Below, piece after piece: positions 1-50,047 of a stretch of 64,000 nucleotides of DNA (the stretch's first letter is position 1; each line of letters opens with the position of its first letter). The notes beneath the pieces were generated by a model, which ran no database searches, was not told the origin of the DNA, and saw nothing but the letters and a program-made list of their open reading frames with translations. The stretch is taken from assembly GCF_046119375.1 (NCBI RefSeq), contig NW_027362763.1:274846001-274910000 (forward strand), in the 5' to 3' direction. Origin of the DNA: Phyllobates terribilis. Lineage: Eukaryota. The translations under genes and the position numbers were made by a program.

Positions 1-2909
1 CAACCTCGCACAACAGAAATGTGATCAAGGTCTGCCTCATCTGATGAGTCTTCCATCAGTCCGTCCTCCACTTCTTCCTGGGCTACGGCACCTTCCTCAC
101 TAGTTTGGCTGCTACCATGCGCCCTGGTAAAACCATCTCCCCCACCCTCACATGCCTGCCGCCTTGGTGCTGCCGACCGTCTGGACCTTGCAGACGTTAG
201 CCCTTCCGCATACAACTACTCCTCCTCTACTTCCTCCACCTCCTCTTGTGCCACCACCTGACTCCGAATTCTGTTTAACATGTGCTCCAGCATGTAAATC
301 ACCGGAATAATCATGCTGATAATGGCATCGCCAGCACTAAACATCTTCGTCGCTATTTCAAAACTGTGCAGAAGGGTGCATAGGTCCCTAATCTGAGACC
401 ACACCTCCAGCGTGATTTGCCCTACCTCTGGATCTCAATGGCCCACGCTATACATCAGAACGTATTGCACCAGGGCTTGTCGGTGCTGCCACAGTTGCTG
501 CAACATGTGCAGAGTTGAATTCCACCGGGTAGGCACATCGCATTTTAGCCGGTGAAGTGGCAGGCCCAACTACTTGTGTAGAGATGTAAGTCGCTGAGCT
601 GCGGGATGCGAACGGCGGAAGTGAGTACACAGCATCCGTGCCCTCTGCAGAAGGCCATCTAGTCCGGGATATTGGGCTAAAAATTGCTGGACAACCAGGT
701 TCAACACGTGAGCCATACAAGGCACGTGTGTGACATTGCCCCGGCGAAGGGCTGCACCCAGGATTGCAGCATTGTCACACACGGCCTTCCCTGGTTTCAG
801 GTCCAGTGGAGACAACCATTCATGAAATTGGGTATCCAGAGCTGACCACAACTCCTCAGCTCTGTGACTCACATTTCCCAGACATTTCAAAGTAAAAACC
901 GCCTGATGACGTTGAGCCCTACTGCCAGCATAGTAAGGAGGTGTGCAGGATCCCTTCTGCGCAGTTAGAAAGCTTGTGGCATGACCAGACAGGCTTTGGG
1001 TGCAGGTGGAGGACCGAGAGGAGGTTGAGGAGGCAGAAGCAGTGGAGGAACTTTGAGATAAAGAGGATTGACGCACAACTCGTGGGGACGGCAAGACTTG
1101 GACAGCAGCCCCTTGTCCTGCTGTCACCATAGTTACCCAATGCCCAGTCAGCGACATGTAATGCCCCTGTCCATGCCTACTCGTCCAAGTGTCGGTGGTG
1201 AAATGCACCCTGTCACACACAGAGTTTCTCAAAGAAGCGATGATGTTGTGTGCGACATGCTGGTTGAGCGCAGGCACACCTTTCTTTGAGAAGTCGTGCC
1301 GACTGGGCATCTGGTACTGGGGCACTGCGACAGACATAAGGTCTCGAAAATCCTCTGTGTCCACCAGGCGGAAAGGCAGCATTTCTGTAGCCAAGAGCTT
1401 GCAGATGGTGAAATTCAACCTCTTAGCTTTCTCATGGCTAGGAGGAAATGGTCTTTTACTTGTCCACATATGAGGGACTGAGGGCTGGCTGTTGTGCTTA
1501 GACGGGGTTGATAAGGGTGTCCCCGGCAAACTGCCGGTCTGTGAAGAAGATACAGACGGACATGTTAGGTTGCCTTGATCCAAAGGTGGTGCTATCAATG
1601 TCGGACAGCGCTCAACACCAGCTGGTGTTACCACCTCCAAAGAAAATGATGACCTGCCAATCACGCTGGCTGTTGCGGGTAAAGAGGTGGCAGGTCTGCG
1701 TCCCAAAACAGGTGTGACTGCTGTCTCCCCAGTCACAGAGGATGAAGAGACCGCGGATGCACAAGATGTGGCAGACGGTGGTTGGCCCGGCCGGCTAGGC
1801 CGCATTGTAGCACAGTGAGCTTCCCACTGCAACTTATGCTTCATGTCCATGTGCCGGTTCATGCATGAAGTACTCAAACTATGTATTTTTTGGCCTCTAC
1901 TTAGCTTTTGCTGACAAATGTTACAGATAACACGAGTTGGGTCATCTTTATCGATCAGAAAAAATGCCCAGGCTATGCAAGGCTTAGCACCCATGCGACC
2001 TGAAGAGCCACCACGACTTGTGGTGAGAGGCAGAGTTGTGTTTGAGAATGCAGTTGTTGACGTGCTTCCAGTACTACGTCTCTGTCCAGGAAGGCGCAGT
2101 CTGACCCCGTCATCACGAGCATTCTCCTCCACCTCCTCTGCTGACCTCATCTCTTGGCTAACTGTGGGTTGACAGTAAGTGGGATCTCCAACCTCATCAT
2201 CATCACCATGTGTGTTATCACACCCGTCGTCCTCAGAGCCAACCTGTTCCTGCCCTGACAAAAAACTAAAGTTGTCGCTCCAATCAGGTATTTGAGTCTC
2301 ATCATCGTCTTCCTCATTGTCTCCACCAACAGGAGTTACAGTTTGGGAATGAGGGTCTACATTATCGTCAGAACCTTCTGCGTCTGGTCCTGGATCCGAC
2401 TCATAAAGATTCTGGGCTTCAGTGCAGATCATTTCCTCGTCTGGATTCACAGAAGCGCTGGAGTCGACCTCTGATTCCCAGGCTATAGTATGAGTAAACA
2501 GCTCTGCAGACTCAACCATCTGTTCTACCTCATACTCAGACGGGCAGCTGGAGATTTGGGAGCTGTGAGGAAGCAAGTGCGATTTGGGTGACACCTTTGA
2601 GGACTGGAGTATTTGTGATGTTGAAGTTGATGTGGAGGAGAGCCCACTTAAAGGAGCACGTGATATCCGTTGAAGCACCTGCTGTTTTTGTGCCTCATCT
2701 GGAATTTGTAGCGATTGGCATGGCCGTAAGAAAGGGATCTTATCACATTGTCCGCTAAAAGAAGTAGACATTTTAGTTTGGCTGGAAGATGGTCTTTCTT
2801 CTGCAGATGTTACTGTTGCTTTAACACCTACCCCATGGACACAACCTTTTTTCCCCTTCCCAACACACCTATTCCCCTTTCCACCAGCAGCAGGCCTTTT
2901 TCCACTCAT
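1..2909 (-). pseudogene. hAT (BED-finger, ZBED-like) transposase, inactivated
   Basis: ORF 570..2909 is nearly identical to the intact 60112..63792 protein (CNIC..RHMDMKH BED finger, FTTDTW, VCDNAA, CMAH). In-frame stops at 570-572 (TCG>TAG), 435-437 (CGA>TGA) and 216-218 (GAG>TAG); the frame is otherwise kept. It has a 21-bp in-frame segment (VKATVTS) that copy B lacks. Confidence 0.93.
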
Positions 2910-6000: not shown

Positions 6001-9000
6001 CAGAAAAAAATTATATTCAATTTGCAACCTGATGGAGGTCAGTATAGATGGACTAATAGACCAAGTCCCACACACTTCTAGAAGCCCAAATATTTTTTCA
6101 GAGCTAGATGCAGAAAAAAATTATATTCAATTTGCAACCTGGTGGAGGTCAGTATATATGGACTAATAGACCAAGTCCCACAAACTGCTAGAATCCCAAA
6201 TATTTTTTTCAGAGCTAGATGCAGAAAAAATTATATTCAATTTGAACCTGATGGAGGTCAGTATAGATGGACCAATAGACCAAGTCCCACACACTTCTAG
6301 AAGCCCAAATATTTTTTCAGAGCTAGATGCAGAAAAAAATTATATTCAATTTGCAACCTGATGGAGGTCAGTATAGATGGACCAATAGACCAAGTCCCAC
6401 ACACTGCTAGGAGCCCAAATATTTTTTCAGAGCTAGATGCAGATAAAAATTATTTTTTATTTGCAACCTGATGGAGGTCAGTATAGATGGACTAACAGAC
6501 CAAGTCCCACACACTGCTAGAAGCTCAAATATTTTTTCAGAGCTAGATGCAGAAAAAAATTATATTCAATTTGCAACCTGATGGAGGTCAGTATAGATGG
6601 ATTAATAGACCAAGTCCCACACACTTCTAGAAGCCCAAATATTTTTTCAGAGCTAGATGCAGAAAAAAATTATATTCAATTTGCAACCTGGTGGAGGTCA
6701 GTATATATGGACTAATAGACCAAGTCCCACAAACTGCTAGAATCCCAAATATTTTTTTCAGAGCTAGATGCAGAAAAAATTATATTCAATTTGAACCTGA
6801 TGGAGGTCAGTATAGATGGACCAATAGACCAAGTCCCACACACTTCTAGAAGCCCAAATATTTTTTCAGAGCTAGATGCAGAAAAAAATTATATTCAATT
6901 TGCAACCTGATGGAGGTCAGTATAGATGGACCAATAGACCAAGTCCCACACACTGCTAGGAGCCCAAATATTTTTTCAGAGCTAGATGCAGATAAAAATT
7001 ATTTTTTATTTGCAACCTGATGGAGGTCAGTATAGATGGACTAACAGACCAAGTCCCACACACTGCTAGAAGCTCAAATATTTTTTCAGAGCTAGATGCA
7101 GAAAAAAATTATATTCAATTTGCAACCTGATGGAGGTCAGTATAGATGGACTAATAGACCAAGTCCCACACACTGCTAGAAGCCCAAATATTTTTTTAGA
7201 GCTAGATGCAAAAAAAAATTATATTCAATTTGCAACCTGATGGAGGTCAGTATAGATGGACTATTAGAACAAGTCCCACACACTGTTTGAAGCCCAAATA
7301 TTTTTTCAGAGCTAGATGCAGAAAAAAATTATATTCAATTTGCAACCTGATGGAGGTCAGTATAGATGGACTAATAGAACAAGTCACACACACTGCTGGA
7401 AGCCCAAATATTTTTTCAGAGCTAGATGCAAAAAAAAAATTATATTCAATTTGCAACCTGATGGAGGTCAGTATAGATGGACTAATAGACCAAGTCCCAC
7501 ACACTGTTAAGAGCCCAAATATTTTTTCAGAGCTAGATGCAGATAAAAATTATTTTTAATTTGCAACATAGTGGAGGTCAGTATAGATGGACTAATAGAC
7601 CAAGTCCCACACACTGCTAGAAGCCCAAATATTTTTTCAGAGCTAGATGCAGAAAAAAATTATATTGAATTTGCAACCTGATGGAGGTCAGTATAGATGG
7701 ACTAATAGACCCAGTCCCACACACTGCAAGAAGCCCAAATATTTTTTCAGAGCTAGATGCAGATAAAAATTATTTTTAATTTACAACATAATTGAGGTCA
7801 GTATAGATGGACTAATAGACCAAGTCCCACACACTGCTAGAAGCCCAAATATTTTTTCAGAGCTAGATGCAGAAAAAAATTATATTCAATTTGCAACCTG
7901 ATGGAGGTCAGTATAGATGGACTAATAGACCAAGTCCCAAACACTGCTAGAAGCCCAAGTATTTTTTCAAAGCTAGATGCAGATAAAAATTATTTTTAAT
8001 TTGCAACCTGATGGAGGTCAGTATAGATGGACTAATAGAACAAGTCCCACACACTGCTAGAAGCTCAAATATTTTTTCAGAGCTAGATGCAGAAAAAAAT
8101 TATATTCAATTTGCCACCTGATGGAGGTCAGTATAGATGGACTATTAGAACAAGTCCCACACACTGCTAGATGCCCAAATATTTTTTCAGAGCTAGATGC
8201 AGAAAAAAATTATATTCAATTTGCAACCTGATGGAGGTCAGTATAGGTGGACTAATAGACCAAGTCCCACACGCTTATAGAACCCCAAATATTTTTTCAG
8301 AGCTAGATGCAGAAAAAAATGATATTCAATTTGCAACCTGATGGAGGTCAGTATAGATGGACTAATAGACCAAGTCCCACACATTGCTAGAAGCCCAAAT
8401 ATTTTTTCAGAGCTAGATGCAGAAAAAAATTATATTCAATTTGCAACCTGATGGAGGTCAGTATAGATGGACTAATAGACCAAGTCCCACACACTGCTAG
8501 GAGCCCAAATATTTTTTCAGAGCTAGATGGAGATAAAAATTATTTTTAATTTGCAACATGATGAAGGTCAGTATAGATGGACTAACAGACCAAGTCCCAC
8601 ACACTGCTAGAAGCCCAAATATTTTTTTCAGAGCTAGATGCAGAAAAAAATTATAATGAATTTGCAACCTGATGGAGGTCAGTATAGATGGACTAATAGA
8701 CCAAGTCCCACACACTTCTAGAAGCCCAAATATTTTTTCAGAGCTAGATGCAGAAAAAAATTATATTCAATTTGCAACCTGGTGGAGGTCAGTATATATG
8801 GACTAATAGACCAAGTCCCACAAACTGCTAGAAGCCCAAATATTTTTTCAGAGCTAGATGCAGAAAAAATTATATTCAATTTGCAACCTGATGGAGGTCA
8901 CTATAGATGGACCAATAGACCAAGTCCCACACACTTTTAGAAGCCCAAATATTTTTTCAGAGCTAGATGCAGAAAAAAATTATATTCAATTTGCAACCTG

Positions 9001-12000
9001 ATGGAGGTCAGTATAGATGGACTAATAGACCAAGTCCCACACACTGCTAGAAGCCCAAATATTTTTTTAGAGCTAGATGCAGAAAAAAATTATATTCAAT
9101 TTGCAACCTGATGGAGGTCAGTATAGATGGACTATTAGAACAAGTCCCACACACTGCTAGAAGCCCAAATATTTTTTCAGAGCTAGATGCAGAAAAAAAT
9201 TATATTCAATTTGCAACCTGATGGAGGTCAGTACAGATGGACTAATAGAACAAGTCACACACACTGCTTGCAGCCCAAATATTTTTTCAGAGCTAGATGC
9301 AGAAAAAAATTATATTCAATTTGCAACCTGATGGAGGTCAGTATAGATGGACTAATAGACCAAGTCCCACACACTGCTAGGAGCCCAAATATTTTTTCAG
9401 AGCTAGATGCAGATAAAAATTATTTTTTATTTGCAACCTGATGGAGGTCAGTATAGATGGACTAACAGACCAAGTCCCACACACTGCTAGAAGCTCAAAT
9501 ATTTTTTCAGAGCTAGATGCAGAAAAAAATTATATTCAATTTGCAACCTGATTTAGGTCAGTATAGATGGACTATTAGAACAAGTCCCACACACTGCTAG
9601 AAGCCCAAATATTTTTTCAGAGCTAGATGCAGATAAAAATTATATTCAATTTGCAACCTGATGGAGGTCAATATAGATGGACTAATAGGACAAGTCCAAC
9701 ACACTGCTAGAAGCCCAAATATTTTTTCAGAGCTAGATGCAGAAAAAAATTATATTCAGTTTGCAACCTGATGGAGGTCAGTATAGATGGACTAATAGAC
9801 CAAGTCCCACACACTGCTAGAAGCCCAAATATTTTTTCAGAGCTAGATGCAGAAAAAAATTATATTCAATTTGCAACCTGATGGAGGTCAGTATAGATGG
9901 ACTATTAGAACAAGTCCCACACACTGCTTGAAGCCCAAATATTTTTTCAGAGCTAGATGCAGAAAAAAATTATATTCAATTTGCAACCTGATGGAGGTCA
10001 GTATAGATGGACTAATAGAACAAGTCACACACACTGCTGGAAGCCGAAATATTTTTTCAGAGCTAGATGCAAAAAAAAATTATATTCAATTTGCAACCTG
10101 ATGGAGGTCAGTATAGATGGACTAATAGACCAAGTCCCACACACTGTTAGGAGCCCAAATATTTTTTCAGAGCTAGATGCAGATAAAAATTATTTTTAAT
10201 TTGCAACATAATGGAGGTCAGTATAGATGGACTAATAGACCAAGTCCCACACACTGCTAGAAGCCCAAATATTTTTTCAGAGCTAGATGCAGAAAAAAAT
10301 TATATTCAATTTGCAACCTGATGGAGGTCAGTATAGATGGACTATTAGAACAAGTCCCACACACTGCTTGAGGCCCAAATATTTTTTCAGAGCTAGATGC
10401 AGAAAAAAATTATATTCAATTTGCAACCTGATGGAGGTCAGTATAGATGGACTAATAGAACAAGTCACACACACTGCTGGAAGCCCAAATATTTTTTCAG
10501 AGCTAGATGCAAAAAAAAATTATATTCAATTTGCAACCTGATGGAGGTCAGTATAGATGGACTAATAGACCAAGTCCCACACACTGTTAGGAGCCCAAAT
10601 ATTTTTTCAGAGCTAGATGCAGATAAAAATTATTTTTAATTTGCAACATAGTGGAGGTCAGTATAGATGGACTAATAGACCAAGTCCCACACACTGCTAG
10701 AAGCCCAAATATTTTTTCAGAGCTAGATGCAGAAAAAAATTATATTGAATTTGCAACCTGATGGAGGTCAGTATAGATGGACTAATAGACGCAGTCTCAC
10801 ACACTGCTAGAAGCCCAAATATTTTTTCAGAGCTAGATGCAGATAAAAATTATTTTTAATTTGCAACATAATACAGGTCAGTATAGATGGACTAATAGAC
10901 AAAGTCCCACACACTGCTAGAAGCCCAAATATTTTTTCAGAGCTAGATGCAGAAAAAAATAATATTCAATTTGCAACCTGATGGAGGTCAGTATAGATGG
11001 ACTAATAGACCAAGTCCCACACACTTCTAGAAGCCCAAATATTTTTTCAGAGCTAGATGCAGAAAAAAATTATATTCAATTTGCAACCTGGTGGAGGTCA
11101 GTATATATGGACTAATAGACCAAGTCCCACACACTTCTAGAAGCCCAAATATTTTTTCAGAGCTAGATGCAGAAAAAAATTATATTCAATTTGCAACCTG
11201 ATGGAGGTCATTATAGATGGACCAATAGACCAAGTCCCACACACTGCTAGGAGCCAAAATATTTTTTCAGAGCTAGATGCAGATAAAAATTATTTTTTAT
11301 TTGCAACCTGATGGAGGTCAGTATAGATGGACTAACAGACCAAGTCCCACACACTGCTAGAAGCTCAAATATTTTTCAAGAGATAGATGCAGAAAAAAAT
11401 TATATTCAATTTGCAACCTGATGGAGGTCAGTATAGATGGACTAATAGACCAAGTCCCACACACTTCTAGAAGCCCAAATATTTTTTCAGAGCTAGATGC
11501 AGAAAAAAATTATATTCAATTTGCAACCTGGTGGAGGTCAGTATATATGGACTAATAGACCAAGTCCCACAAACTGCTAGAATCCCAAATATTTTTTTCA
11601 GAGCTAGATGCAGAAAAAATTATATTCAATTTGAACCTGATGGAGGTCAGTATAGATGGACCAATAGACCAAGTCCCACACACTTCTAGAAGCCCAAATA
11701 TTTTTTCAGAGCTAGATGCAGAAAAAAATTATATTCAATTTGCAACCTGATGGAGGTCAGTATAGATGGACCAATAGACCAAGTCCCACACACTGCTAGG
11801 AGCCCAAATATTTTTTCAGAGCTAGATGCAGATAAAAATTATTTTTTATTTGCAACCTGATGGAGGTCAGTATAGATGGACTAACAGACCAAGTCCCACA
11901 CACTGCTAGAAGCTCAAATATTTTTCCAGAGCTAGATGCAGAAAAAAATTATATTCAATTTGCAACCTGATGGAGGTCAGTATAGATGGACTAATAGACC

Positions 12001-15000
12001 AAGTCCCACACACTGCTAGAAGCCCAAATATTTTTTTAGAGCTAGATGCAAAAAAAAATTATATTCAATTTGCAACCTGATGGAGGTCAGTATAGATGGA
12101 CTATTAGAACAAGTCCCACACACTGTTTGAAGCCCAAATATTTTTTCAGAGCTAGATGCAGAAAAAAATTATATTCAATTTGCAACCTGATGGAGGTCAG
12201 TATAGATGGACTAATAGAACAAGTCACACACACTGCTGGAAGCCCAAATATTTTTTCAGAGCTAGATGCAAAAAAAAAATTATATTCAATTTGCAACCTG
12301 ATGGAGGTCAGTATAGATGGACTAATAGACCAAGTCCCACACACTGTTAAGAGCCCAAATATTTTTTCAGAGCTAGATGCAGATAAAAATTATTTTTAAT
12401 TTGCAACATAGTGGAGGTCAGTATAGATGGACTAATAGACCAAGTCCCACACACTGCTAGAAGCCCAAATATTTTTTCAGAGCTAGATGCAGAAAAAAAT
12501 TATATTGAATTTGCAACCTGATGGAGGTCAGTATAGATGGACTAATAGACCCAGTCCCACACACTGCTAGAAGCCCAAATATTTTTTCAGAGCTAGATGC
12601 AGATAAAAATTATTTTTAATTTACAACATAATTGAGGTCAGTATAGATGGACTAATAGACCAAGTCCCACACACTGCTAGAAGCCCAAATATTTTTTCAG
12701 AGCTAGATGCAGAAAAAAATTATATTCAATTTGCAACCTGATGGAGGTCAGTATAGATGGAATAATAGACCAAGTCCCACACACTGCTAGAAGCCCAAAT
12801 ATTTTTTCAGAGCTAGATGCAGAAAAAAATTATATTCAATTTGCAACCTGATGGAGGTCAGTATAGATGGACTAATAGACCAAGTCCCACACACTGCTAG
12901 GAGCCCAAATATTTTTTCAGAGCTAGATGGAGATAAAAATTATTTTTAATTTGCAACATGATGGAGGTCAGTATAGATGGACTTATAGACCAAGTCCCAC
13001 ACACTGCTAGAAGCCCAAATATTTTTTTAGAGCTAGATGCAAAAAAAAATTATATTCAATTTGCAACCTGATGGAGGTCAGTATAGATGGACTATTAGAA
13101 CAAGTCCCACACACTGCTAGAAGCCCAAATATTTTTTCAGAGCTAGATGCAGAAAAAAATTATATTCAATTTGTAACCTGATGGAGGTCAGTACAGATGG
13201 ACTAATAGAACAAGTCACACACACTGCTTGCAGCCCAAATATTTTTTCAGAGCTAGATGCAGAAAAAAATTATATTCAATTTGCAACCTGATGGAGGTCA
13301 GTATAGATGGACTAATAGACCAAGTCCCACACACTGCTAGGAGCCCAAATATTTTTTCAGAGCTAGATGCAGATAAAAATTATTTTTTATTTGCAACCTG
13401 ATGGAGGTCAGTATAGATGGACTAACAGACCAAGTCCCACACACTGCTAGAAGCTCAAATATTTTTTCAGAGATAGATGCAGAAAAAAATTATATTCAAT
13501 TTGCAACCTGATGGAGGTCAGTATAGATGGACTATTAGAACAAGTCCCACACACTGCTAGAAGCCCAAATATTTTTTCAGAGCTAGATGCAGATAAAAAT
13601 TATATTCAATTTGCAACCTGATGGAGGTCAGTATAGATGGACTAATAGGACAAGTCCAACACACTGCTAGAAGCCCAAATATTTTTTCAGAGCTAGATGC
13701 AGAAAAAAATTATATTCAGTTTGCAACCTGATGGAGGTCAGTATAGATGGACTAATAGACCAAGTCCCACACACTGCTAGAAGCCCAAATATTTTTTCAG
13801 AGCTAGATGCAGAAAAAAATTATATTCAATTTGCAACCTGATGGAGGTCAGTATAGATGGACTATTAGAACAAGTCCCACACACTGCTTGAAGCCCAAAT
13901 ATTTTTTCAGAGCTAGATGCAGAAAAAAATTATATTCAATTTGCAACCTGATGGAGGTCAGTATAGATGGACTAATAGAACAAGTCACACACACTGCTGG
14001 AAGCCCAAATATTTTTTCAGAGCTAGATGCAAAAAAAAATTATATTCAATTTGCAACCTGATGGAGGTCAGTATAGATGGACTAATAGACCAAGTCCCAC
14101 ACACTGTTAGGAGCCCAAATATTTTTTCAGAGCTAGATGCAGATAAAAATTATTTTTAATTTGCAACATAATGGAGGTCAGTATAGATGGACTAATAGAC
14201 CAAGTCCCACACACTGCTAGAAGCCCAAATATTTTTTCAGAGCTAGATGCAGAAAAAAATTATATTCAATTTGCAACCTGATGGAGGTCAGTATAGATGG
14301 ACTATTAGAACAAGTCCCACACACTGCTTGAAGCCCAAATATTTTTTCAGAGCTAGATGCAGAAAAAAATTATATTCAATTTGCAACCTGATGGAGGTCA
14401 GTATAGATGGACTAATAGAACAAGTCACACACACTGCTGGAAGCCCAAATATTTTTTCAGAGCTAGATGCAAAAAAAAATTATATTCAATTTGCAACCTG
14501 ATGGAGGTCAGTATAGATGGACTAATAGACCAAGTCCCACACACTGTTAGGAGCCCAAATATTTTTTCAGAGCTAGATGCAGATAAAAATTATTTTTAAT
14601 TTGCAACATAGTGGAGGTCAGTATAGATGGACTAATAGAACAAGTCCCACACACTGCTAGAAGCCCAAATATTTTTTCAAAGCTAGATGCAGAAAAAAAT
14701 TATATTGAATTTGCAACGTGATGGAGGTCAGTATAGATGGACTAATAGACCCAGTCCCACACACTGCTAGAAGCCCAAATATTTTTTCAGAGCTAGATGC
14801 AGATAAAAATTATTTTTAATTTGCAACATAATGGAGGTCAGTATAGATGGACTAATAGACCAAGTCCCACACACTGCTAGAAGCCCAAATATTTTTTCAG
14901 AGCTAGATGCAGAAAAAAATTATATTCAATTTGCAACCTGATGGAGGTCAGTATAGATGGACTAATAGACCAAGTCCCACACACTGTTAGGAGCCCATAT

Positions 15001-17940
15001 ATTTTTTCAGAGCTAGATGCAGATAAAAATTATTTTTAATTTGCAACATAATGGAGGTCAGTATAGATGGACTAATAGACCAAGTCCCACACACTGCTAG
15101 AAGCCCAAATATTTTTTCAGAGCTAGATGCAGAAAAAAATTATATTCAATTTGCAACCTGATGGAGGTCAGTATAGATGGAATAATAGACCAAGTCCCAC
15201 ACACTGCTAGAAGCCCAAATATTTTTTCAGAGCTAGATGCAGAAAAAAATTATATTCAATTTGCAACCTGATGGAGGTCAGTATAGATGGACTAATAGAC
15301 CAAGTCCCACACACTGCTAGGAGCCCAAATATTTTTTCAGAGCTAGATGGAGATAAAAATTATTTTTAATTTGAAACATGATTGAGGTCAGTATAGATGG
15401 ACTTATAGACCAAGTCCCACACACTGCTAGAAGCCCAAATATTTTTTTCAGAGCTAGATGCAGAAAAAAATTATATTGAATTTGCAACCTGATGGAGGTC
15501 AGTATAGATGGACTAATAGACCAAGTCCCACAAACTGCTAGAAGCCCAAATATTTTTTTCAGAGCTAGATGCAGAAAAAATTATATTCAATTTGAACCTG
15601 ATGGAGGTCAGTATAGATGGACCAATAGACCAAGTCCCACACACTTCTAGAAGCCCAAATATTTTTTCAGAGCTAGATGCAGAAAAAAATTATATTCAAT
15701 TTGCAACCTGATGGAGGTCAGTATAGATGGACTAATAGACCAAGTCCCACACACTGCTAGAAGCCCAAATATTTTTTTAGAGCTAGATGCAAAAAAAAAT
15801 TATATTCAATTTGCAACCTGATGGAGGTCAGTATAGATGGACTATTAGAACAAGTCCCACACACTGCTAGAAGCCCAAATATTTTTTCAGAGCTAGATGC
15901 AGAAAAAAATTATATTCAATTTGCAACCTGATGGAGGTCAGTACAGATGGACTAATAGAACAAGTCACACACACTGCTTGCAGCCCAAATATTTTTTTAG
16001 AGCTAGATGCAGAAAAAAATTATATTCAATTTGCAACCTGATGGAGGTCAGTATAGATGGACTAATAGACCAAGTCCCACAAACTGCTAGGAGCCCAAAT
16101 ATTTTTTCAGAGCTAGATGCAGATAAAAAATATTTTTTATTTGCAACCTGATGGAGGTCAGTATAGATGGACTAACAGACCAAGTCCCACACACTGCTAG
16201 AAGCTCAAATATTTTTTCAGAGATAGATGCAGAAAAAAATTATATTCAATTTGCAACCTGATGGAGGTCAGTATAGATGGACTATTAGAACAAGTCCCAC
16301 ACACTGCTAGAAGCCCAAATATTTTTTCAGAGCTAGATGCATATAAAAATTATATTCAATTTGCAACCTGATGGAGGTCAGTATAGATGGACTAATAGGA
16401 CAAGTCCAACACACTGCTAGAAGCCCAAATATTTTTTCAGAGCTAGATGCAGAAAAAAATTATATTCAGTTTGCAACCTGATGGAGGTCAGTATAGATGG
16501 ACTAATAGGACAAGTCCAACACACTGCTAGAAGCCCAAATATTTTTTCAGAGCTAGATGCAGAAAAAAATTATATTCAGTTTGCAACCTGATGGAGGTCA
16601 GTATAGATGGACTAATAGACCAAGTCCCACACACTGCTAGAAGCCCAAATATTTTTTCAGAGCTAGATGCAGAAAAAAATTATATTCAATTTGCAACCTG
16701 ATGGAGGTCAGTATAGATGGACTATTAGAACAAGTCACACACACTGCTTGAAGCCCAAATATTTTTTCAGAGCTAGATGCAGAAAAAAATTATATTCAAT
16801 TTGCAACCTGATGGAGGTCAGTATAGATGGACTAATAGAACAAGTCACACACACTGCTGGAAGCCCAAATATTTTTTCAGAGCTAGATGCAAAAAAAAAT
16901 TATATTCAATTTGCAACCTGATGGAGGTCAGTATAGATGGACTAATAGACCAAGTCCCACACACTGTTAGGAGCCCAAATATTTTTTCAGAGCTAGATGC
17001 AGATAAAAATTATTTTTAATTTGCAACATAATGGAGGTCAGTATAGATGGACTAATAGACCAAGTCCCACACACTGCTAGAAGCCCAAATATTTTTTCAG
17101 AGCTAGATGCAGAAAAAAATTATATTCAATTTGCAACCTGATGGAGGTCAGTATAGATGGACTATTAGAACAAGTCCCACACACTGCTTGAAGCCCAAAT
17201 ATTTTTTCAGAGCTAGATGCAGAAAAAAACTATATTCAATTTGCAACCTGATGGAGGTCAGTATAGATGGACTAATAGAACAAGTCACACACACTGCTGG
17301 AAGCCCAAATATTTTTTCAGAGCTAGATGCAAAAAAAAATTATATTCAATTTGCAACCTGATGGAGGTCAGTATAGATGGACTAATAGACCAAGTCCCAC
17401 ACACTGTTAGGAGCCCAAATATTTTTTCAGAGCTAGATGCAGATAAAAATTATTTTTAATTTGCAACATAATGGAGGTCAGTATAGATGGACTAATAGAC
17501 CAAGTCCCACACATTGCTAGAAGCCCAAATATTTTTTCAGAGCTAGATGCAGAAAAAAATTATATTGAATTTGCAACCTGATGGAGGTCAGTATAGATGG
17601 ACTAATAGACCCAGTCCCACACACTGCTAGAAGCCCAAATATTTTTTCAGAGCTAGATGCAGATAAAAATTATTTTTAATTTGCAACATAATGGAGGTCA
17701 GTATAGATGGACTAATATACCAAGTCCCACACACTGCTAGAAGCCCAAATATTTTTTCAGAGCTAGATGCAGAAAAAAATTATATTCAATTTGCAACCTG
17801 ATGGAGGTCAGTATAGATGGACTAATAGAACAAGTCCCACACACTGCTAGAAGCCCAAATATTTTTTCAGAGCTAGATGCAGAAAAAAATTATATTCAAT
17901 TTGCAACCTGATGGAGGTCAGTATAGATGGATTAATAGAA
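3025..17940. repeat. 110-bp tandem satellite array (~135 units) with higher-order repeats
   Basis: Unit GAGCTAGATGCAGAAAAAAATTATATTCAATTTGCAACCTGATGGAGGTCAGTATAGATGGACTAATAGACCAAGTCCCACACACTGCTAGAAGCCCAAATATTTTTTCA. Period 110 (e.g. starts 3241, 3351, 3461). Variant patterns recur at 440 bp and at multi-kb spacings. Confidence 0.98.
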
Positions 17941-41000: not shown

Positions 41001-43209
41001 TGTTATGCACACGCCCGGGCTGAGCGGCGTGTGCGTGTGATTGTAGTGATTCCACTGGACCGTGCCGGAGAGTGAATGCCTGGAGGGGCTTAACTAGGTA
41101 TTCACCCGATCCGACCTGGGTCGCACGACGGCATACGACGGCAGTGCACCAAGGAGGAACCGAGCAAAGGGACCAGGTGCTACTCCAGGACAGACCCCGG
41201 ACACGGCTGTTGACCCACACAGGGGAATACAGGAACAGACTGGTAGGCTGGCACACAGACTGGTGGGTATAGGCAGGCACGACTGGTATGCAGGCAGGCG
41301 GGTAAGCAGGCAGGGGGGTACAGGCAAGCACAGCTAGAGTGCAGACAGGGAGGCACTAGCAGGTAGGAACACAGGCGGGATAGGACCCAGTACACACTGG
41401 GACTCAGGACTAATACAGGCAGGGGGGTACAGGCAAGCACAGCTAGAGTGCAGACAGGGAGGCACTAGCAGGTAGGAACACAGGCGGGATAGGATCCAGT
41501 ACACACTGGGACTCAGGAACAATACAGGCAGAGGGGTACAGGCAAGCACAGCTAGAGTGCAGACAGGGAGGCACTAGCAGGTAGGGACACTGGCGGGATA
41601 GGACCCAGTACAGACTGGGACTCAGGAACAGAGCCACAGATGTGGCGGACAAACACAGCAGAGTGAGGCCGCCCAGAGAGGTGAGAGAGAACAGGGCAGG
41701 ACAAGGCCGCCTGGAGCGGTGAGCAAGAGTAGAGCAGGACAAGTCCGCCAGGAGCGGTGAACAAAGGATCAAAGCTGAGCGAGACTGCTGGAGCAGTGAG
41801 CAAGAGTAAAGCAGGACGAGGCCGCCTGGAGCGGTGAGCAAGAGTGGAGCGAGACTGCCGGAGCAGCGAGCAAAAGGGTCAGAGCGGAGCAAGGCTGCCG
41901 GAGCAGCGAGCAAAGGAGTCAGAGCAGGCTAGAACCGCCGGAGCGGTAAGCAAAGGAGTCAGAGCAGACTAGAACCGCCGGAGCGGTGAGCAAAGGAGTC
42001 AGAGCAGACTAGAACCGCCGCAGCGGTGAGCAAAGGAGTCAGAGCAGACTAGAACCGCCGGAGCGGTGAGCAAAGGAGTCAGAGCAGACTAGAACCGCCG
42101 GAGCGGTGAGCAAAGGAGTCAGAGCAGGCTAGAACCGCCGGAGCAGTGAGCAAAGGAGTCAGAGCAGGCAAGGCTGAGTAGGGGGGACAGGGCTCTGTTA
42201 ACACGGAACAGACAGGAAGGGAAAGGCAGAGCCAGACACCCACAGGGTACTTGCAGTGAAGTAGCGAGTGGACCACAAACTCACAAACGGGAGTACAGAG
42301 ACAACAGGCAGGAGTCAGGTACGAGTTCAGACTCTGCAGAAAAAGGAAAGGAACGGACATAGAGAAAAGACAGATGAAAGATAGGAGAGAGTACAGACTG
42401 GAACTGAGTGTACGGACGAGACCAACACAGGAGTGGGACACAAGAGCGGATCTGGGAATACGGCCCCCAGAGAGGCGGGACAAACAGGCAAGGAGCGTGT
42501 TCAGACAGGACAGACAAGATACAGGAACGGATCTAGGTAATCGGCCCCTAGAAGGAGGGAGGAACAGGCTAGGAGCGTGTTCAGACAGGACAGACAAGAT
42601 ACAGGAACGGATCTAGGTAATCGGCCCCTAGAAGGCGGGAGGAACAGGCTAGGAGCATGTTCAGACAGAACAGACAAGATACAGGAGCAGGTCTGGGTAA
42701 TCGGCCCCCAGAGAGGCGGGACGAACAGGCAAGGAGCGTGTTCAGACAGGCCTGGAAATACAGCCTCCAGGAAAGGCAGCAGGCAAGAGTACACAGACAG
42801 GACTCAGTTCAGACACGGGAACTGATACCGCAAGGCAGGAGACATAGACAGGACTCAGTTCAGACACGGGAACTGATACCGCAAGACAGGAGACAAAGAA
42901 CGGGACCTGGCATCTTCAGAGTGAAGGCACACACTGAATGAAACACTATGCTCAGGCAGGGATAGATGGGAGCAGCTGAGGTATATACCAGGTGACAGAC
43001 AGCAATAGGCTGAGGACGCACAAGGGGTGTGACCCACAGCAGGTACAAAAAGCAGGAAGTGATCGGGCGCCGCCCTTAAGCAGCAGAAACAGACACAAAC
43101 AGACAGCATGGAGGGAAGCCAGAGAGACATTCTGGACTGGAGATCAAGTGCGCGCTCTTGCACAGTGGGAGATGGACCACCATGCAAGGACGCCGCCAGG
43201 TATGTTACA
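41001..43209 (-). repeat. 3' LTR (2209 bp) containing 109-, 40-, 80- and 51-bp tandem arrays
   Basis: On the minus strand it begins TGTAACA right after the PPT and ends CATAACA; direct repeat of 45390-47404. Confidence 0.9.
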
Positions 43210-45251
43210 GTACCCCCCCCCTTTCGCCCCCTCTTCTTCAGGCCTGCCAGAATCTTCCGCAGGGAATTCGAGGACCAGTCGTTCACTTCAAGGAGATCAC
43301 TTCCACTGTCCACAGGAAAAACTGATCTCATCTGGTTAGCTAGGATGCTACCTCCTATCCAGCCATCCTCAGCAACAGACGAAACGGGTGGAGTACCAGG
43401 AACAGCACACAAGGAAGTCTCTCTCCACATATTTTCAGGTGGCACCCCAGAGGGTACAGGAGACAACTGGAAGTCCTTCACCGGGTTGGAGGGGGACAGA
43501 GACTTGGGGGTAATCTCTGCTTCGAGGTACATCTTGTCAAGCTCACGGGAAGAAATAGACGGGTTATCAGGTACATAATGAGGAAAAGTCACTGTCTCTT
43601 TGTTATCTGGTGGTACCCCGGAGGATTCAGGAAACAACTGGAGGTCCTCCGCCGGGTCAGAAGAGTGCAGAGGCTCAGAGAAAACATCTGCTTCAGAGTA
43701 CACTAGGTCGGACTCACTGGACGAAGCAGGCGAGGTATCGGGTACCGAGTATAGGAAAGTCTCTGTCCATTCACCACCAGGTGGCACCCCGAAGGGTTCT
43801 GGAGTCAACTGGCGGTCCTCCGCCTGGTCAGAGGGGTGTAGAGACTCACGGGTAACCTCTGCTTCAGAGTACACTAGGTCGGACTCACTGGACGAAGCAA
43901 GCGAGGTATCAGATCTAGGATATAGGAGAGTCTCTGTCCATTCACCACCAGGTGGCACCCAGAAGGGTTCTGGAGACAACTGGAGGTCCTCCGCCTGGTC
44001 GGAGGGGTGTAGAGACTCGGGAGTAACCACTGCTTCGGAGTACACTAGGTTGGACTCAGTGGACGAAGCGAGCGAGGTATCAGGTACAGAGTATAGGAGA
44101 GTCTCTGTCCTTTCGCTACCAGGTAGCACCCCGAAGGGTTCTGGGGACAACTGGAGGTCCTCCGCCTGGTCGGAGGGGTGTAGAGACTCGGGAGTAACCA
44201 CTGCTTCGGGGTACACTAGGTTGGACTCAGTGGACGAAGCGAGCGAGGTATCAGGTACAGAGTATAGGAGAGTCTCTGTCCTTTCGCTACCAGGTAGCAC
44301 CCCGAAGGGTTCAGGAGACAACTGGAGGTCCTCCGCCTGGTCGGAGGGGTGTAGAGACTCGGGGGTAACTACCACTTTGGGGTACCCATTGTCAGGCTCA
44401 CAGGACGAAGCGGACAAAGCATCGAGTACCAGGTGTAGAGAAGTCTCTCTCCATTTGTCATCGAGTGGTATCCCGGAGGATTCAGGAGGCAACAGGGGGT
44501 CCTCCACCAGGTAGTAGAGGTGCACAGACTCTGAGGTAACCACAGCTTTGGAGCATCCTTGGACATGCACACCGGTTAAAGTGGGTGAAGCATCTGATGC
44601 CGGGTGCAGGAAGTTCTCCTGTGTGGAGTCTGGATGGGCAGAAGTCTCTTTGGGCAGGAGAACTGGTGCACTACCCACGCACATTAACCGTTGGGGCTTC
44701 TCCGGGATACAGGGAGATGAAGCTTCAGTAGGGACTTCAAGGTTGGGGTCAGGAGGTCTCAGGGAGGACAGACCCTGGCGTGACGGCTTGCCTCTACGTC
44801 TAGCACGTCTGGACTGCCTCTTGAGGTTGGGAGAAGTATTCCGGAAAGCGTAGTCACCCTGTGAGGATTCTGGGTGGGCAGTAGTCTCATTGGGCTGGAG
44901 GACTATTGCGCTACCCACACACATTACCCGTCGGGGCTGCTCCGGGATATTGGGAAGTGAAGCTTCAGCAGGGGCTTCAGGGTTAGGGTCCTCGAAGACC
45001 ATAGGAAAGGCCACCAGGAAGGCCTGCAGGTCAAGGACGACAGGATCCCATGCTTCCCATAGGGGGGTGACCCATTTCAAGGCATCACCCGCTAGGTAGT
45101 CAATCATAAAGGCCACTTTAGCCCAATCGGAAGGAAAATAGAGAGGGTAGGCCTTAAAGTGTAGCATGCATTGCTCCACAAATGCACGACACTGTCTTGG
45201 ATCCCCATAGTAACGAGGCGGATCCGCAGGAACGAGAGCTGATAGATCCAT
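42855..45251 (-). CDS. Gag-derived protein: DUF4939 (RTL1/PEG10/LDOC1-like) N-terminus plus seven 57-aa Pro/Glu/Ser-rich repeats; reads into the 3' LTR
   Basis: PPRYYGDPRQCRAFVEQCMLHF..FPSDWAKVAFMIDYLAGDALKWVTPLWE..LQAFL..F..VFEDP is the sushi/RTL Gag motif. The 171-bp repeat period is visible (43981 vs 44152). 798 codons without a stop. Confidence 0.85.
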   Translation of the reverse strand: MDLSALVPADPPRYYGDPRQCRAFVEQCMLHFKAYPLYFPSDWAKVAFMIDYLAGDALKWVTPLWEAWDPVVLDLQAFLVAFPMVFEDPNPEAPAEASLPNIPEQPRRVMCVGSAIVLQPNETTAHPESSQGDYAFRNTSPNLKRQSRRARRRGKPSRQGLSSLRPPDPNLEVPTEASSPCIPEKPQRLMCVGSAPVLLPKETSAHPDSTQENFLHPASDASPTLTGVHVQGCSKAVVTSESVHLYYLVEDPLLPPESSGIPLDDKWRETSLHLVLDALSASSCEPDNGYPKVVVTPESLHPSDQAEDLQLSPEPFGVLPGSERTETLLYSVPDTSLASSTESNLVYPEAVVTPESLHPSDQAEDLQLSPEPFGVLPGSERTETLLYSVPDTSLASSTESNLVYSEAVVTPESLHPSDQAEDLQLSPEPFWVPPGGEWTETLLYPRSDTSLASSSESDLVYSEAEVTRESLHPSDQAEDRQLTPEPFGVPPGGEWTETFLYSVPDTSPASSSESDLVYSEADVFSEPLHSSDPAEDLQLFPESSGVPPDNKETVTFPHYVPDNPSISSRELDKMYLEAEITPKSLSPSNPVKDFQLSPVPSGVPPENMWRETSLCAVPGTPPVSSVAEDGWIGGSILANQMRSVFPVDSGSDLLEVNDWSSNSLRKILAGLKKRGRKGGGTVTYLAASLHGGPSPTVQERALDLQSRMSLWLPSMLSVCVCFCCLRAAPDHFLLFVPAVGHTPCASSAYCCLSPGIYLSCSHLSLPEHSVSFSVCLHSEDARSRSLSPVLRYQFPCLN
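43213..43230 (-). promoter_or_regulatory. Polypurine tract
   Basis: GGGGCGAAAGGGGGGGGG lies 3 nt before the TG of the 3' LTR on the minus strand. Confidence 0.85.
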
Positions 45252-45377
45252 CTGGACGGTGCGTAATTCGCCTGGAACTCAGCTAAGGAAAAAAAAAATT
45301 ATTTATTTATTTTAATGCATGTATTCGCTGGAAAACTTCTCAGAGAGCGAAGGCCGTGGGGCACAACGGGAACCATG

Positions 45378-45387
45378 GCCTGAGCAT
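45378..45387 (-). promoter_or_regulatory. Self-priming PBS candidate (ATGCTCAGGC)
   Basis: Located 2 nt inside the 5' LTR boundary. No TGG tRNA-type PBS is present. It is the exact reverse complement of GCCTGAGCAT, which starts 30 nt downstream of the LTR TATA box. Confidence 0.75.
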
Positions 45388-45389
45388 GC

Positions 45390-47404
45390 TGTTATGCACA
45401 CGCCCGGGCTGAGCGGCGTGTGCGTGTGATTGTAGTGATTCCACTGGACCGTGCCGGAGAGTGAATGCCTGGAGGGGCTTAACTAGGTATTCACCCGATC
45501 CGACAAGGGTCGCACGACGGCATACGACGCCAGTGCACCAAGGAGGAACCGAGCAAATGGACCAGATGCTACTCCAGGACAGACCCCGGACACGGCTGTT
45601 GACCCACACAGGGGAATACAGGAACAGACTGGTAGGCTGGCACACAGACTGGTGGGTATAGGCAGGCACGACTGGTATGCAGGCAGGCGGGTAAGCAGGC
45701 AGGGGGGTACAGGCAAGCACAGCTAGAGTGCAGACAGGGAGGCACTAGCAGGTAGGAACACAGGCGGGATAGGACCCAGTACACACTGGGACTCAGGAAT
45801 AATACAGGCAGAGGGGTACAGGCAAGCACAGCTAGAGTGCAGACAGGGAGGCACTAGCAGGTAGGGACACTGGCGGGATAGGACCCAGTACACACTGGGA
45901 CTCAGGAACAGAGCCTCAGATGTGGCGGACAAACACAGCAGAGTGAGGCCGCCCAGAGAGGTGAGCGAGAACAGGGCAGGACAAGGCCGCCTGGAGCGGT
46001 GAGCAAGAGTAGAGCAGGACAAGGCCGCCAGGAGCGGTGAACAAAGGATCAAAGCTGAGCGAGACTGCTGGAGCAGTGAGCAAGAGTAAAGCAGGACGAG
46101 GCCGCCTGGAGCGGTGAGCAAGAGTGGAGCGAGACTGCCGGAGCAGCGAGCAAAAGGGTCAGAGCGGAGCAAGGCTGCCGGAGCAGCGAGCAAAGGAGTC
46201 AGAGCAGGCTAGAACCGCCGGAGCGGTAAGCAAAGGAGTCAGAGCAGACTAGAACCGCCGGTGCGGTGAGCAAAGGAGTCAGAGCAGACTAGAACCGCCG
46301 GAGCGGTGAGCAAAGGAGTCAGAGCAGACTAGAACCGCCGGAGCGGTGAGCAAAGGAGTCAGAGCAGACTAGAACCGCCGGAGCGGTGAGCAAAGGAGTC
46401 AGAGAAGACTAGAACCGCCGGAGCGGTGAGCAAAGGAGTCAGAGCAGACTAGAACCGCCGGAGCGGTGAGCAAAGGAGTCAGAGCAGGCTAGAACCGCCG
46501 GAGCAGTGAGCAAAGGAGTCAGAGCAGGCAAGGCTGAGTAGGGGGGACAGGGCTCTGTTCACATGGAACAGACAGGAAGGGAAAGGCAGAGCCAGACACC
46601 CACAGGGTACTTGCAGTGAAGTAGCGAGTGGACCACAAACTCACAAACGGGAGTATAGAGACAACAGGCAGGAGTCAGGTACGAGTTCAAACTCTGCAGA
46701 AAAAGGAAAGGAACGGACATAGAGAAAAGACAGATGAAAGATAGGAGAGAGTACAGACTGGAACTGAGTGTACGGACGAGACCAACACAGGAGTGGGACA
46801 CAGGAGCGGGTCTGGGAATACGGCCCCCAGAGAGGCGGGACAAACAGGCAAGGAGCGTGTTCAGACAGGACAGACAAGATACAGGAACGGATCTAGGTAA
46901 TCGGCCCCTAGAAGGCGGGAGGAACAGGCTAGGAGCATGTTCAGACAGAACAGACAAGATACAGGAGCAGGTCTGGGTAATCGGCCCCCAGAGAGGCGGG
47001 ACGAACAGGCAAGGAGCGTGTTCAGACAGGCCTGGAAATACAGCCTCCAGGAAAGGCAGCAGGCAAGAGTACACAGACAGGACTCAGTTCAGACACGGGA
47101 ACTGATACCGCAAGACAGGAGACAAAGAACGGGACCTGGCATCTTCAGAGTGCAGGCACACACTGAATGAAACACTATGCTCAGGCAGGGATAGATGGGA
47201 GCAGCTGAGCTATATACCAGGTGACAGACAGCAATAGGCTGAGGACGCACAAGGGGTGTGACCCACAGCAGGTACAAAAAGCAGGAAGTGATCGGGCGCC
47301 GCCCTTAAGCAGCAGAAACAGACACAAACAGACAGCATGGAGGGAAGCCAGAGAGACATTCTGGACTGGAGATCAAGTGCGCGCTCTTGCACAGTGGGAG
47401 ATGG
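45390..47404 (-). repeat. 5' LTR, truncated at its outer end
   Basis: Direct repeat of 41001-43175; identity stops after GAGATGG at 47404. Confidence 0.9.
47177..47216 (-). promoter_or_regulatory. LTR core promoter: TATATA (47211-47216) and predicted start (~47186)
   Basis: The minus strand reads CCTGGTATATAG..(30 nt)..GCCTGAGCAT; the same arrangement is at 42948-42987 in the other LTR. Confidence 0.6.
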
Positions 47405-50047
47405 CTGCCATGAATATTGGCCCCCACCCAGGCTAGAAACACCAGCCGTCAGCCGCCCCAGAAATGGCGCATCCATAGTATGAGCCAATTCTTGCACTTA
47501 GCCTCGCTCTTCCCACTGCCCTGTTGCGGTGGCAGTGGGGTAATAGGGCTGGGGTTGATGTCAGCTTATAATGCCAGCTGACATCAAGCCCAGGTTAGTA
47601 ATGGAGAGGCGTCTTTAAGACACCCCCATTACTAACTCCATAGTCAAAGTTAAAAAAAAGCACAAACACCCAGAATGAAGTCCTTTAATTGAAATAAACA
47701 CACAATTCTTTAATGTTCTAAATTAAACCATACTTACCATCACGCCCATTCCAGCTGAAGCCAATGTCTTCTGCAATAAAAGTAAAATAATAAACCAACC
47801 TCATCCTTACCTTTCCATGGTTCCCAGGATGGCTTCAGCTCTGCTACATTCACATGACAGGCTGGATCGCAGCCGAAAGCTGCCATCCAGCTTGCCATGC
47901 CGCAGACACTGAGAAGCGCAGGCATGTTTGCTCTCCTCAGTGTCTGGCTGTGTCTCCTGCACATGCGGTGTGTGTGAGAGAATTCTCCTGCGCTAACTGA
48001 AAGCGCAGGAGATTTCTCCCACACTGTCAGTGATGTGAATTAGGTGAGCTGAGTTCATTGGGCATGAACTCGGCTCATCAGGATGCCATCACAGCCAGAC
48101 ACTAAGGAGCGCAAGCATGCCTGCGCTTCTCAGTGTCTGCGGTATGGCAAGCTGGATGGCAGCTTTCGGCTGCGATCCAGCCTGTCATGTGAGTGTAGCA
48201 GAGCTGAAGCTGTCCTGGGAACCATGGAATAGTAAGGATGAGGTTGCTTTATTATTTTACTTTTATTGCAGAAGACATTGGCTTCAGCTGGAATGGTCAT
48301 GATGGTAAGTATGGTTTAATTTAATTATTAAAAAATTGTGTGTTTATTTCAATTAAAGGACTTTATTCTGGGTGTTTTTTTTTTAAATACTTTACTAGAA
48401 ATTCATGGCGGTCATGTCTAATATTGGCATGACCCCATGAATTTCAAGCTTAGAGCCAGCTGAGAATACCAAGCTGGCCCTAACCCCTTTATTAACCAGT
48501 GAGCAACCGCACCAGGGCCCTAGATGAGTTGGGTACAGCGCCAGAAGTTGGCGCTTCTATTAACGCGCCATTTTCTGGGGTGGCTGCGGACTGCAATTTG
48601 CAGCGGTTGGGGGCCCAGAAAGCTTGGGTCTCCCTGCGCTGCAGATTCCAGCCCCCAGCTGCCTAGTTGTACCTGGCTGGACACAAAAGTCGGGCGAAGC
48701 CCCACATATAATTTTTTAAAATATTTCATGAAATTCATGAAATAATAAAAAAAAAGGGCTTCCCTATATTGTTTTGTTCGGCCAGGTACAAATATGCCAC
48801 TGGTGGTGGGGGCAGCTCGTTCCTGCCTGCTGCACCTGGCTGGACACAAAAATAGGGCGAAGCCCCACATCAATTTTTTTTTAATTATTTCATGAAATTC
48901 ATGAAATGGAATTATAAGCTGACATCAACCCCAGCCCTATTACCCCACTGCCACTGCTACAGGGCAGTGGGAAGAGTGAGGCTAAGTGCCAAAATTGGTG
49001 CATCCTATGGATGTGCCATTCCTGGGGCGGCTGACTGCTGGTGTTTCTAGCCTGGGAGGGGACCAATATTCATGGCACCCTTCCTGGGCTGTTAATATCA
49101 GCCCCCAGCTGTCCGCCTAGCCTTTGCTAGCTACTAAAATAGGAGGGACCCCACGTAATTTTTTTTTTTTGAGTCCCCCATTTTAATTGCTAGTAAAGGC
49201 TAGGTATTCAGCTGGGGGCTGATATTAGTAGCCTGGGAAGCTCTGTGGGTATTACCCCCTTCCTAGGCTTCAAACATCTCCCTCAGCCGTCTGCTTAACC
49301 TCCGCTAGAGACTAAAATTACAGGGAACCCCACGCCAATTTTTTTTTAAATAAATCCTTTATTTTAACACTAAATGACAAGTACAGTAATCAACACTATC
49401 ACTGTACTTATTATATATGTGACTGACATGTTTCTATGTTTCTAATCTATGTGTGATGCTCTATTCTTTCTGTTCTAAATTGTCTGGTACCGGAGTATGC
49501 TGCTGATGAATTGCCGGCTGGCTTTTTTAAAGAGACAAAAACACTATATATTTTTTTTTTTAAATCCTTTATTTTAACACTAAATAACAAGTACAGTAAC
49601 CAACACTGTCACTGTACTTATCATATATGTGACTGACATGTTTCTATCTATCTAATCTATGTGTGATGTTCTATACTTTCTGTTCTAAATTGTCGGGTAC
49701 CGGTGTATGCCGCTGATGAATTGCCGGCTGGCTTTTATAAAGAGACGGGTGCATGAAAATCAGAGGGCACTGGTGTGTTCCAAGTGCCCTGCTATGTTTT
49801 TCATGCACCCTCCTATATACCCTGTCTGCCTTTATATTCTGCCTGCCTGACGTTTAATTGAGCACCGTTCCCATCGATTTGGGCAATTTTTGACCTTCTG
49901 CTGACCGCCGGGGGGGACCACCAGAAAAATGCTTGAGTTTCCCATAGACTTACATTGGGCTCGTTGCTTGGGTCGAGCACCCAAGTATTCCAATGTGCTC
50001 GACCCGAGCTTCGAGCACCCGAGCATTTTAGTGCTTGCTCATCACTA
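47405..50047. mobile_element. Left-truncated non-autonomous hAT element with a large internal palindrome
   Basis: Right end CGAGCACCCGAGCATTTTAGTGCTTGCTCATCACTA (rc TAGTGATGAGC). Inverted arms at 47655-47952/48090-48385 and 47405-47572/48912-49078. Confidence 0.75.
49345..49745. repeat. ~210-bp tandem duplication
   Basis: AAATCCTTTATTTTAACACTAAAT...GAATTGCCGGCTGGCTTTT..AAAGAGAC occurs at about 49352 and 49562. Confidence 0.85.

Follow-up and report, generated by a model that had tools for sequence, protein, structure and literature searches.

A high-copy LTR element without pol in Phyllobates terribilis carries a signature of Tf1/sushi-type self-priming

The window, i.e. the whole 64-kb stretch of DNA that was analyzed, contains an LTR element on its minus strand, the features of which are listed in Table 1. 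The two LTRs are identical at 1915 of 1935 aligned nucleotides (99.0%), and the R-U5 of the 5' LTR is filled with VNTR units of 80, 40 and 109 nt. Because the first ~34 nt of the 5' LTR are missing at its border with a palindromic element, the window copy has no TSD that could be checked. Nested palindromic MITE-like elements with arms of 177 and 234 nt occupy positions 47400-49083, and the outer one borders the 5' LTR and cuts it short. Elsewhere in the window, a satellite array of ~136 copies of a 110-bp unit (93% matches) extends from 3026 to 17939. The leader of the element includes an AT-rich stretch (45283-45311, minus strand) where the single AATAAA detected in the element precedes a T-run and an AG; some subfamilies lack the AATAAA but keep the T-run/AG. 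The ATG in the leader arm of the U5-leader helix is out of frame with the main 798-aa ORF.

Table 1. Features of the LTR element in the window (positions count from the first letter of the window)
Feature	Position	Strand	Remarks
5' LTR	45390..47404	-	short U3, then ~1.8 kb of VNTR-filled R-U5
3' LTR	41001..43209	-	2,209 bp with TG...CA ends and no AATAAA-type hexamer; holds the other copy of the 10-mer (42948-42957)
TATA box	47211..47216	-	TATATA starting at 47216
Predicted self-primer	47177..47186	-	first 10 nt of the RNA, from an inferred TSS
PBS	45378..45387	-	complements the self-primer; 2 nt (GC) past the LTR end CA at 45390
Polypurine tract (PPT)	43213..43239	-	just upstream of the 3' LTR
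798-aa ORF	42855..45251	-	N-terminal half of Gag capsid plus repeats; extends into the 3' LTR
U5 terminal hairpin	45396..45423	-	predicted; 45423-45415 with 45404-45396
U5 arm of the U5-leader helix	45436..45442	-	predicted partner is 45375-45369
Leader arm of the U5-leader helix	45369..45376	-	predicted; includes an ATG that is homologous to family D's Gag start
Conserved mid-LTR island	46639..46705	-	splice-acceptor-like and GTGAGT donor-like motifs, ~49 nt apart; putative

A sequence-only reading of this DNA had described an LTR element without pol, in which the 5' LTR is followed by no TGG-type tRNA PBS and instead by a PBS exactly complementary to a 10-mer downstream of TATATA in both LTRs. 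These observations were confirmed. No pol-like match was found within the 64-kb window, and the CA at the LTR end is followed by GC and then directly by the PBS. The 10-mer GCCTGAGCAT has three exact matches in the window, at 47177-47186 and 42948-42957 (both on the minus strand) and as its complement at 45378-45387, compared with 0.17 occurrences expected in shuffled sequence. In both LTRs it lies 30 nt after TATATA, and the primer-to-PBS distance in the window copy is 1,799 nt. The LTR was also simulated 3,000 times under a Markov model; a 10-nt complement to the PBS region was present anywhere in the simulated LTR in 47 cases and within TATA+25..45 in none.

The 10.6-Gb assembly contains 8,772 exact LTR-end/PBS junctions, a number that includes some haplotype duplicates (e.g. 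L051 and L052, which have common flanks). At 5.9 kb per copy, the family DNA was estimated at ~50 Mb, or ~0.5% of the assembly, ignoring haplotype duplicates and solo LTRs. Two sets of copies were analyzed. Set 1 comprised 37 loci from a DNA similarity search, which together with the window copy gave 38. Set 2 comprised 40 loci chosen by the PBS alone among the ~50 junctions listed first for contig 1, after removal of nine loci already met in a Gag search and one tandem neighbor. Both LTRs were located in 32 of the 40 set 2 copies, with a median LTR identity of 99.8%, and 30 of these 32 complete copies had 5-bp TSDs. Across the family, the LTRs are 1.4-2.2 kb long and the primer-to-PBS span is 1,116-1,980 nt. 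The internal regions of 35 located copies (1.4-2.9 kb) were all devoid of pol, matches to which occurred solely in flanking DNA, and the ORF was open up to the 3' LTR in 24 of 31 set 2 copies. The family is thus a non-autonomous LTR retrotransposon with intact cis signals and no pol that has multiplied recently. The chromovirus RT/IN with chromodomain, one of the traits of the Tf1/sushi group, is absent from the element itself; because it has no pol, it was filed as a non-autonomous derivative of that group. Tandem LTR-internal-LTR-internal arrays with a common LTR were also encountered (L033, L035, L038, L045, L050-L052, L054, L055 and L183); they make up ~1 in 40 of the PBS-picked sample and are commoner in the similarity-picked set.

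The PBS and the 10-mer at TATA+30 co-vary among copies, a point that the earlier reading had proposed to check. In set 1 including the window copy, 35 of 38 copies were evaluable and 27 were perfectly complementary, and a TATA-like hexamer preceded the primer by 30 nt in all 35 located set 1 copies. Position 10 of the primer and position 1 of the PBS formed T:A in 25 copies, A:T in nine and a mismatch in one (n = 35), although this co-variation reflects few independent events, such that its Fisher P overstates the support. In the divergent subfamily, the last primer base and the first PBS base are both switched. The 24-nt spacer between TATA and primer deviated from the commonest letter of its column in 248 of 840 cells (~30%), in contrast to 1 of 315 cells for primer positions 1-9. 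Of the set 2 copies, 36 carried the exact primer and two a one-base mismatch, and in two the promoter was not located. An LTR pattern blind to the PBS gave 8,284 matches, and the exact primer was present in 94 of the first 100 listed.

Four copies carried a mismatched primer in both LTRs and, for this reason, were likely made with it. Such copies fit the idea that daughters take the 10-mer from the 3' LTR of the parent, and also fit relaxed pairing.

The PBS is predicted to be enclosed by a U5 hairpin and a helix between U5 and leader, in an arrangement known as a "pretzel". Over 35 distinct copies, 97.9% of the helix cells were paired, but support from within the family is weak: one pair only showed a double change, and the helix co-variation score was reached by 7 of 500 shuffles and was flagged as not significant. 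When the pol-less family is compared with the Pol-bearing family D (see below), two positions of the U5-leader helix are inverted and pairing is retained. Folding of the whole leader of the window copy gave primer-PBS pair probabilities of 0.90-0.999. Leader folding was dropped as a line of evidence, since it brought primer and PBS together in 8 of 10 natural leaders and likewise in 27 of 38 interior-shuffled controls.

Searches that used PF16297, a Gag homologue and the C-terminus of an integrase revealed four Pol-bearing families, A to D. The sample comprised 41 loci, of which nine without a clean LTR or promoter were dropped. Among the 32 evaluable copies, 27 were perfectly complementary, three had G-U pairs only as deviations, and two were mismatched. 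Together with two pairs of the pol-less family, families A-D yielded eight complementary primer/PBS pairs that differ at six of ten positions (3, 4, 6, 8, 9 and 10), all with the same geometry, the PBS lying 2 nt after CA and the primer 30 nt after a TA-rich hexamer; the primers of A-C were located by searching for the PBS complement and hence are not independent evidence. The primer-to-PBS distance is 416 nt in C, ~667 nt in A (251 nt in one deleted copy), ~710-744 nt in B, and 633-1,014 nt, filled with VNTRs, in D. One family D copy (L247), in which it is just 60 nt, represents the short extreme.

Family D, with 18,774 exact junctions, has several features in common with the window element. 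Its Pol contains RT, RNase H, integrase, SH3 and chromodomain. Its Gag is 48-54% identical to the Gag N-terminus of the window element, its U5 is 72-87% identical over ~105-170 nt, and the PPT/LTR start is 80-90% identical over ~50 nt. The start of the leader and the last integrase codons are also common to both. Among the matches listed, the window element had DNA homology to D and none to A-C. In a tree of the Gag N-terminus, the pol-less family was monophyletic (100/99) and near D, while its placement inside D was not firm (91/75). One young pol-less copy with a TSD (L150) is inserted straight into an element of family D, with 97% identity to D Pol in the DNA next to its 3' LTR. Based on the homologies, the abundant chromovirus family D is likely to be both the parent and the helper of the pol-less family.

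The main D primers differ from that of the pol-less family; an older D lineage has the primer/PBS of the divergent subfamily, and the five copies examined were all degraded. The PBS variant of the divergent subfamily was found at 592 D-type junctions, 30 of which were read and 27 of which were evaluable; 20 of these 27 had an uncompensated C-A mismatch and three were fully compensated. With 592 compared with 18,774 junctions, the uncompensated C-A probably results from CpG decay after insertion. A Pol-encoding element with the same LTR ends and 10-mer, which the sequence-only reading had proposed to look for, did not turn up: two PPT-anchored pattern searches for a Pol element with the LTR of the pol-less family returned only family members and D-type elements. 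The related proposal that RT is borrowed from an autonomous partner is supported in that a Pol-bearing relative is present in the genome, and qualified in that the main 10-mers of this relative differ. Because priming would be in cis, a helper need not have the same 10-mer.

The 798-aa ORF begins with an N-terminal part of Gag that resembles DUF4939 (E 9.5e-6, which does not reach the Pfam cut-off), continues with ~600 aa of Ser/Pro/Glu-rich 57-aa repeats, and ends with C-terminal codons common with the integrase of family D. Its Gag part aligns to D residues 77-165, which represent the first half of the Ty3-capsid match of D; the C-terminal half of the capsid and the zinc knuckle are absent. 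For 28 stop-free copies, leaving out eight with stops or frameshifts, the uncorrected pN/pS between young and divergent copies was 0.39, and the N/S of shared variants was 1.3 compared with 3.5 expected from site counts. Because of these values, the truncated protein seems to be maintained under purifying selection. A HMMER search for homologues gave 1,442 matches, and the top matches with a name came from frogs and a caecilian. A word-index search gave no match, and a metagenome scan gave one weak match of 20 aa. The Gag N-terminus of the window element alone had no match in PDB; a profile of 76 relatives matched PEG10 and Ty3 Gag, partly via regions that the window protein may lack. A single-sequence fold of the window protein was unusable (pLDDT 38.7).

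[quoted passage not shown] The three-duplex pretzel and self-priming are described as common to the Tf1/sushi group, including vertebrates (10.1101/2022.12.06.519325, PMC6317226). By analogy with Tf1, transcription of the window element would start at about 47186. The 5' end of the RNA would fold onto the PBS, held between the U5 hairpin and the U5-leader helix, and the RNase H of the helper would cut after about nt 10, freeing a 3' OH. Minus-strand DNA would then be copied through U5/R, followed by transfer. The element RNA would prime itself in cis inside a helper particle, with helper identity and packaging as suppositions of the model, and the specificity for a helper would depend on packaging, the LTR ends and the PPT. 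The spacing of 1.1-2.0 kb would represent VNTR growth tolerated by the mechanism. From the geometry and the co-variation among copies, which support the signature claimed in the earlier reading, self-priming of the Tf1/sushi type is very likely. With considerable confidence, we conclude that this high-copy pol-less element likely derives from a chromovirus family of the same genome, that it likely primes itself with the 10 nt at the start of its RNA, and that this relative likely supplies RT, RNase H, integrase and the full capsid.

The most serious alternative concerns the unusually long strong-stop DNA that the earlier reading supposed. The ~1.8 kb of VNTR-filled R-U5 proposed in the earlier reading is matched by the primer-to-PBS distance in the window, but it is not specific to the parasite, as Pol-bearing relatives have 0.63-1.0 kb; the span of 1.1-2.0 kb is about a doubling of the repeat-filled leader of D. 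Neither AATAAA nor ATTAAA occurs in the R-U5 of 36 of 36 sampled copies, and a canonical poly(A) hexamer is also absent from the five D and three A-C LTRs examined, unlike the Sushi LTR model, which has AATAAA near the 3' end (PMC3601003). Because a canonical poly(A) signal is absent, R may extend over most of the LTR, and a long R could allow an early first strand transfer. Self-priming could thus be real and the long strong-stop not, with transcripts ending near or beyond the LTR end, a long R, and early transfer within the repeats. The VNTR length was the same in both LTRs in only 14 of 32 copies, which fits slippage, although the differences could equally date from after insertion. We rate this alternative as quite possible, at somewhat below an even chance.

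The mid-LTR island with its acceptor- and donor-like motifs was kept in 35 of 36 sampled copies, and an acceptor-like site (~45283 in the window) preceded the ATG in 31 of 36. As a weak lead, the two could shorten by splicing a leader that contains eight upstream ATGs. The presence of only one GTRAG per LTR was discarded as a sign of splicing, because the count (37 observed, 32 expected) was not below chance.

A further alternative holds that the pairing was inherited as a relic, or serves as a promoter or translation structure, and that the family spreads by trans-priming with cleaved helper primers or by recombination into helper cDNA. The copies with primer mismatches in both LTRs are in line with this, as are the primer of family A, which could pair with the PBS of the pol-less family with one G-U, and the Gag sequences, which look mosaic between subfamilies. 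However, the primer was held while the adjoining spacer diverged by about 30%, and the mismatched primers are scattered single elements, as expected if the 10-mer comes from the 3' LTR of the parent; we therefore consider this explanation improbable. That the PBS binds the end or a fragment of a host tRNA, with the LTR 10-mer being incidental, is the least probable: the tRNA comparison, which covered tRNA-Lys(TTT) genes and two doubtful calls only, leaves room for internal tRNA fragments, but the best match was 6 nt, no CCA end can pair because TGG is absent after the LTR in the window and among the family and relative copies listed, and each of the eight PBS sequences is tracked by its own LTR 10-mer at TATA+30. 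The genome has large tRNA gene arrays (C1:817.17-817.91 Mb and C11:574.07-575.77 Mb), and those read encode tRNA-Lys(TTT).

Self-priming in cis, the preferred reading, places the element beside known systems. As in Tf1, Tf2, Tj1 and the vertebrate V-clade (Sushi-ichi, Amn-ichi/ni/san), the PBS beside the 5' LTR complements the predicted 5' end of the RNA. The TG...CA ends, 5-bp TSDs and sushi-like Gag are likewise shared with the Tf1/sushi group, as the predicted pretzel helices would be, and the presumed parent family D has a chromodomain integrase and separate gag and pol frames. Unlike Tf1, the pol-less family has a duplex of 10 nt instead of 11 nt and no pol. Its LTRs of 1.4-2.2 kb compare with 244 bp reported for Tj1 (PMC4600332) and with a mean of 572 bp for Sushi LTRs in a set dominated by zebrafish (PMC3601003). 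Among amphibians, Amn-san chromoviruses are reported as the most abundant LTR elements of Silurana (PMC4131045). The Xenopus elements 1a11, xretpos(L) and lambda-olt 2-1 are described as LTR elements that lack pol and carry a long ORF, which in 1a11 is Gag-like (PMC4585706), a layout also found here; according to the same source, they have tens to hundreds of copies and are thought to be immobile, whereas the present family has thousands of young copies. The ORF resembles mammalian RTL8 and LDOC1 (Mart, sushi-derived) in being a Gag with only the DUF4939-like N-terminal part of the capsid, but these are single-locus host genes, whereas here the ORF belongs to a mobile family and has a repeat tail of ~600 aa.

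The earlier description of a distinctive parasite of sushi-type elements holds in part. A Tf1/sushi derivative is expected to self-prime, and the core mechanism is not new; distinctive are the pol-less, very high-copy form, the roughly doubled leader and the retained half-capsid ORF. Among the papers listed by the literature searches, none was on a non-autonomous self-priming family, and an earlier description may exist, for instance in Repbase or Dfam. RTL8 is reported to enter PEG10 particles and to bind the N-terminal domain of the PEG10 capsid (PMC11684626), and a similar role of the truncated Gag in helper particles can be put forward as a hypothesis only. A broader scenario, which we regard as unlikely, would be a self-priming parasite that is freed from the need to match a host or helper primer, that loops its RNA over up to 2 kb, and that has a protein of capsid N-terminus and acidic repeats, possibly made from spliced mRNA without the PBS, which enters helper particles, i.e. 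a still-mobile counterpart of RTL8/PEG10.

Self-priming is presented in one source as experimentally established for yeast Tf1 and as only inferred for its vertebrate relatives (PMC4600332). The eight co-varying primer/PBS pairs add comparative support for self-priming in the latter, and the signature persists across 1.1-2.0 kb and even where pol has been lost. The thousands of young copies would allow a direct reading of natural RNA and cDNA ends, and the truncated capsid, with its sign of purifying selection, may be relevant to the origin of RTL8/LDOC1-like genes.
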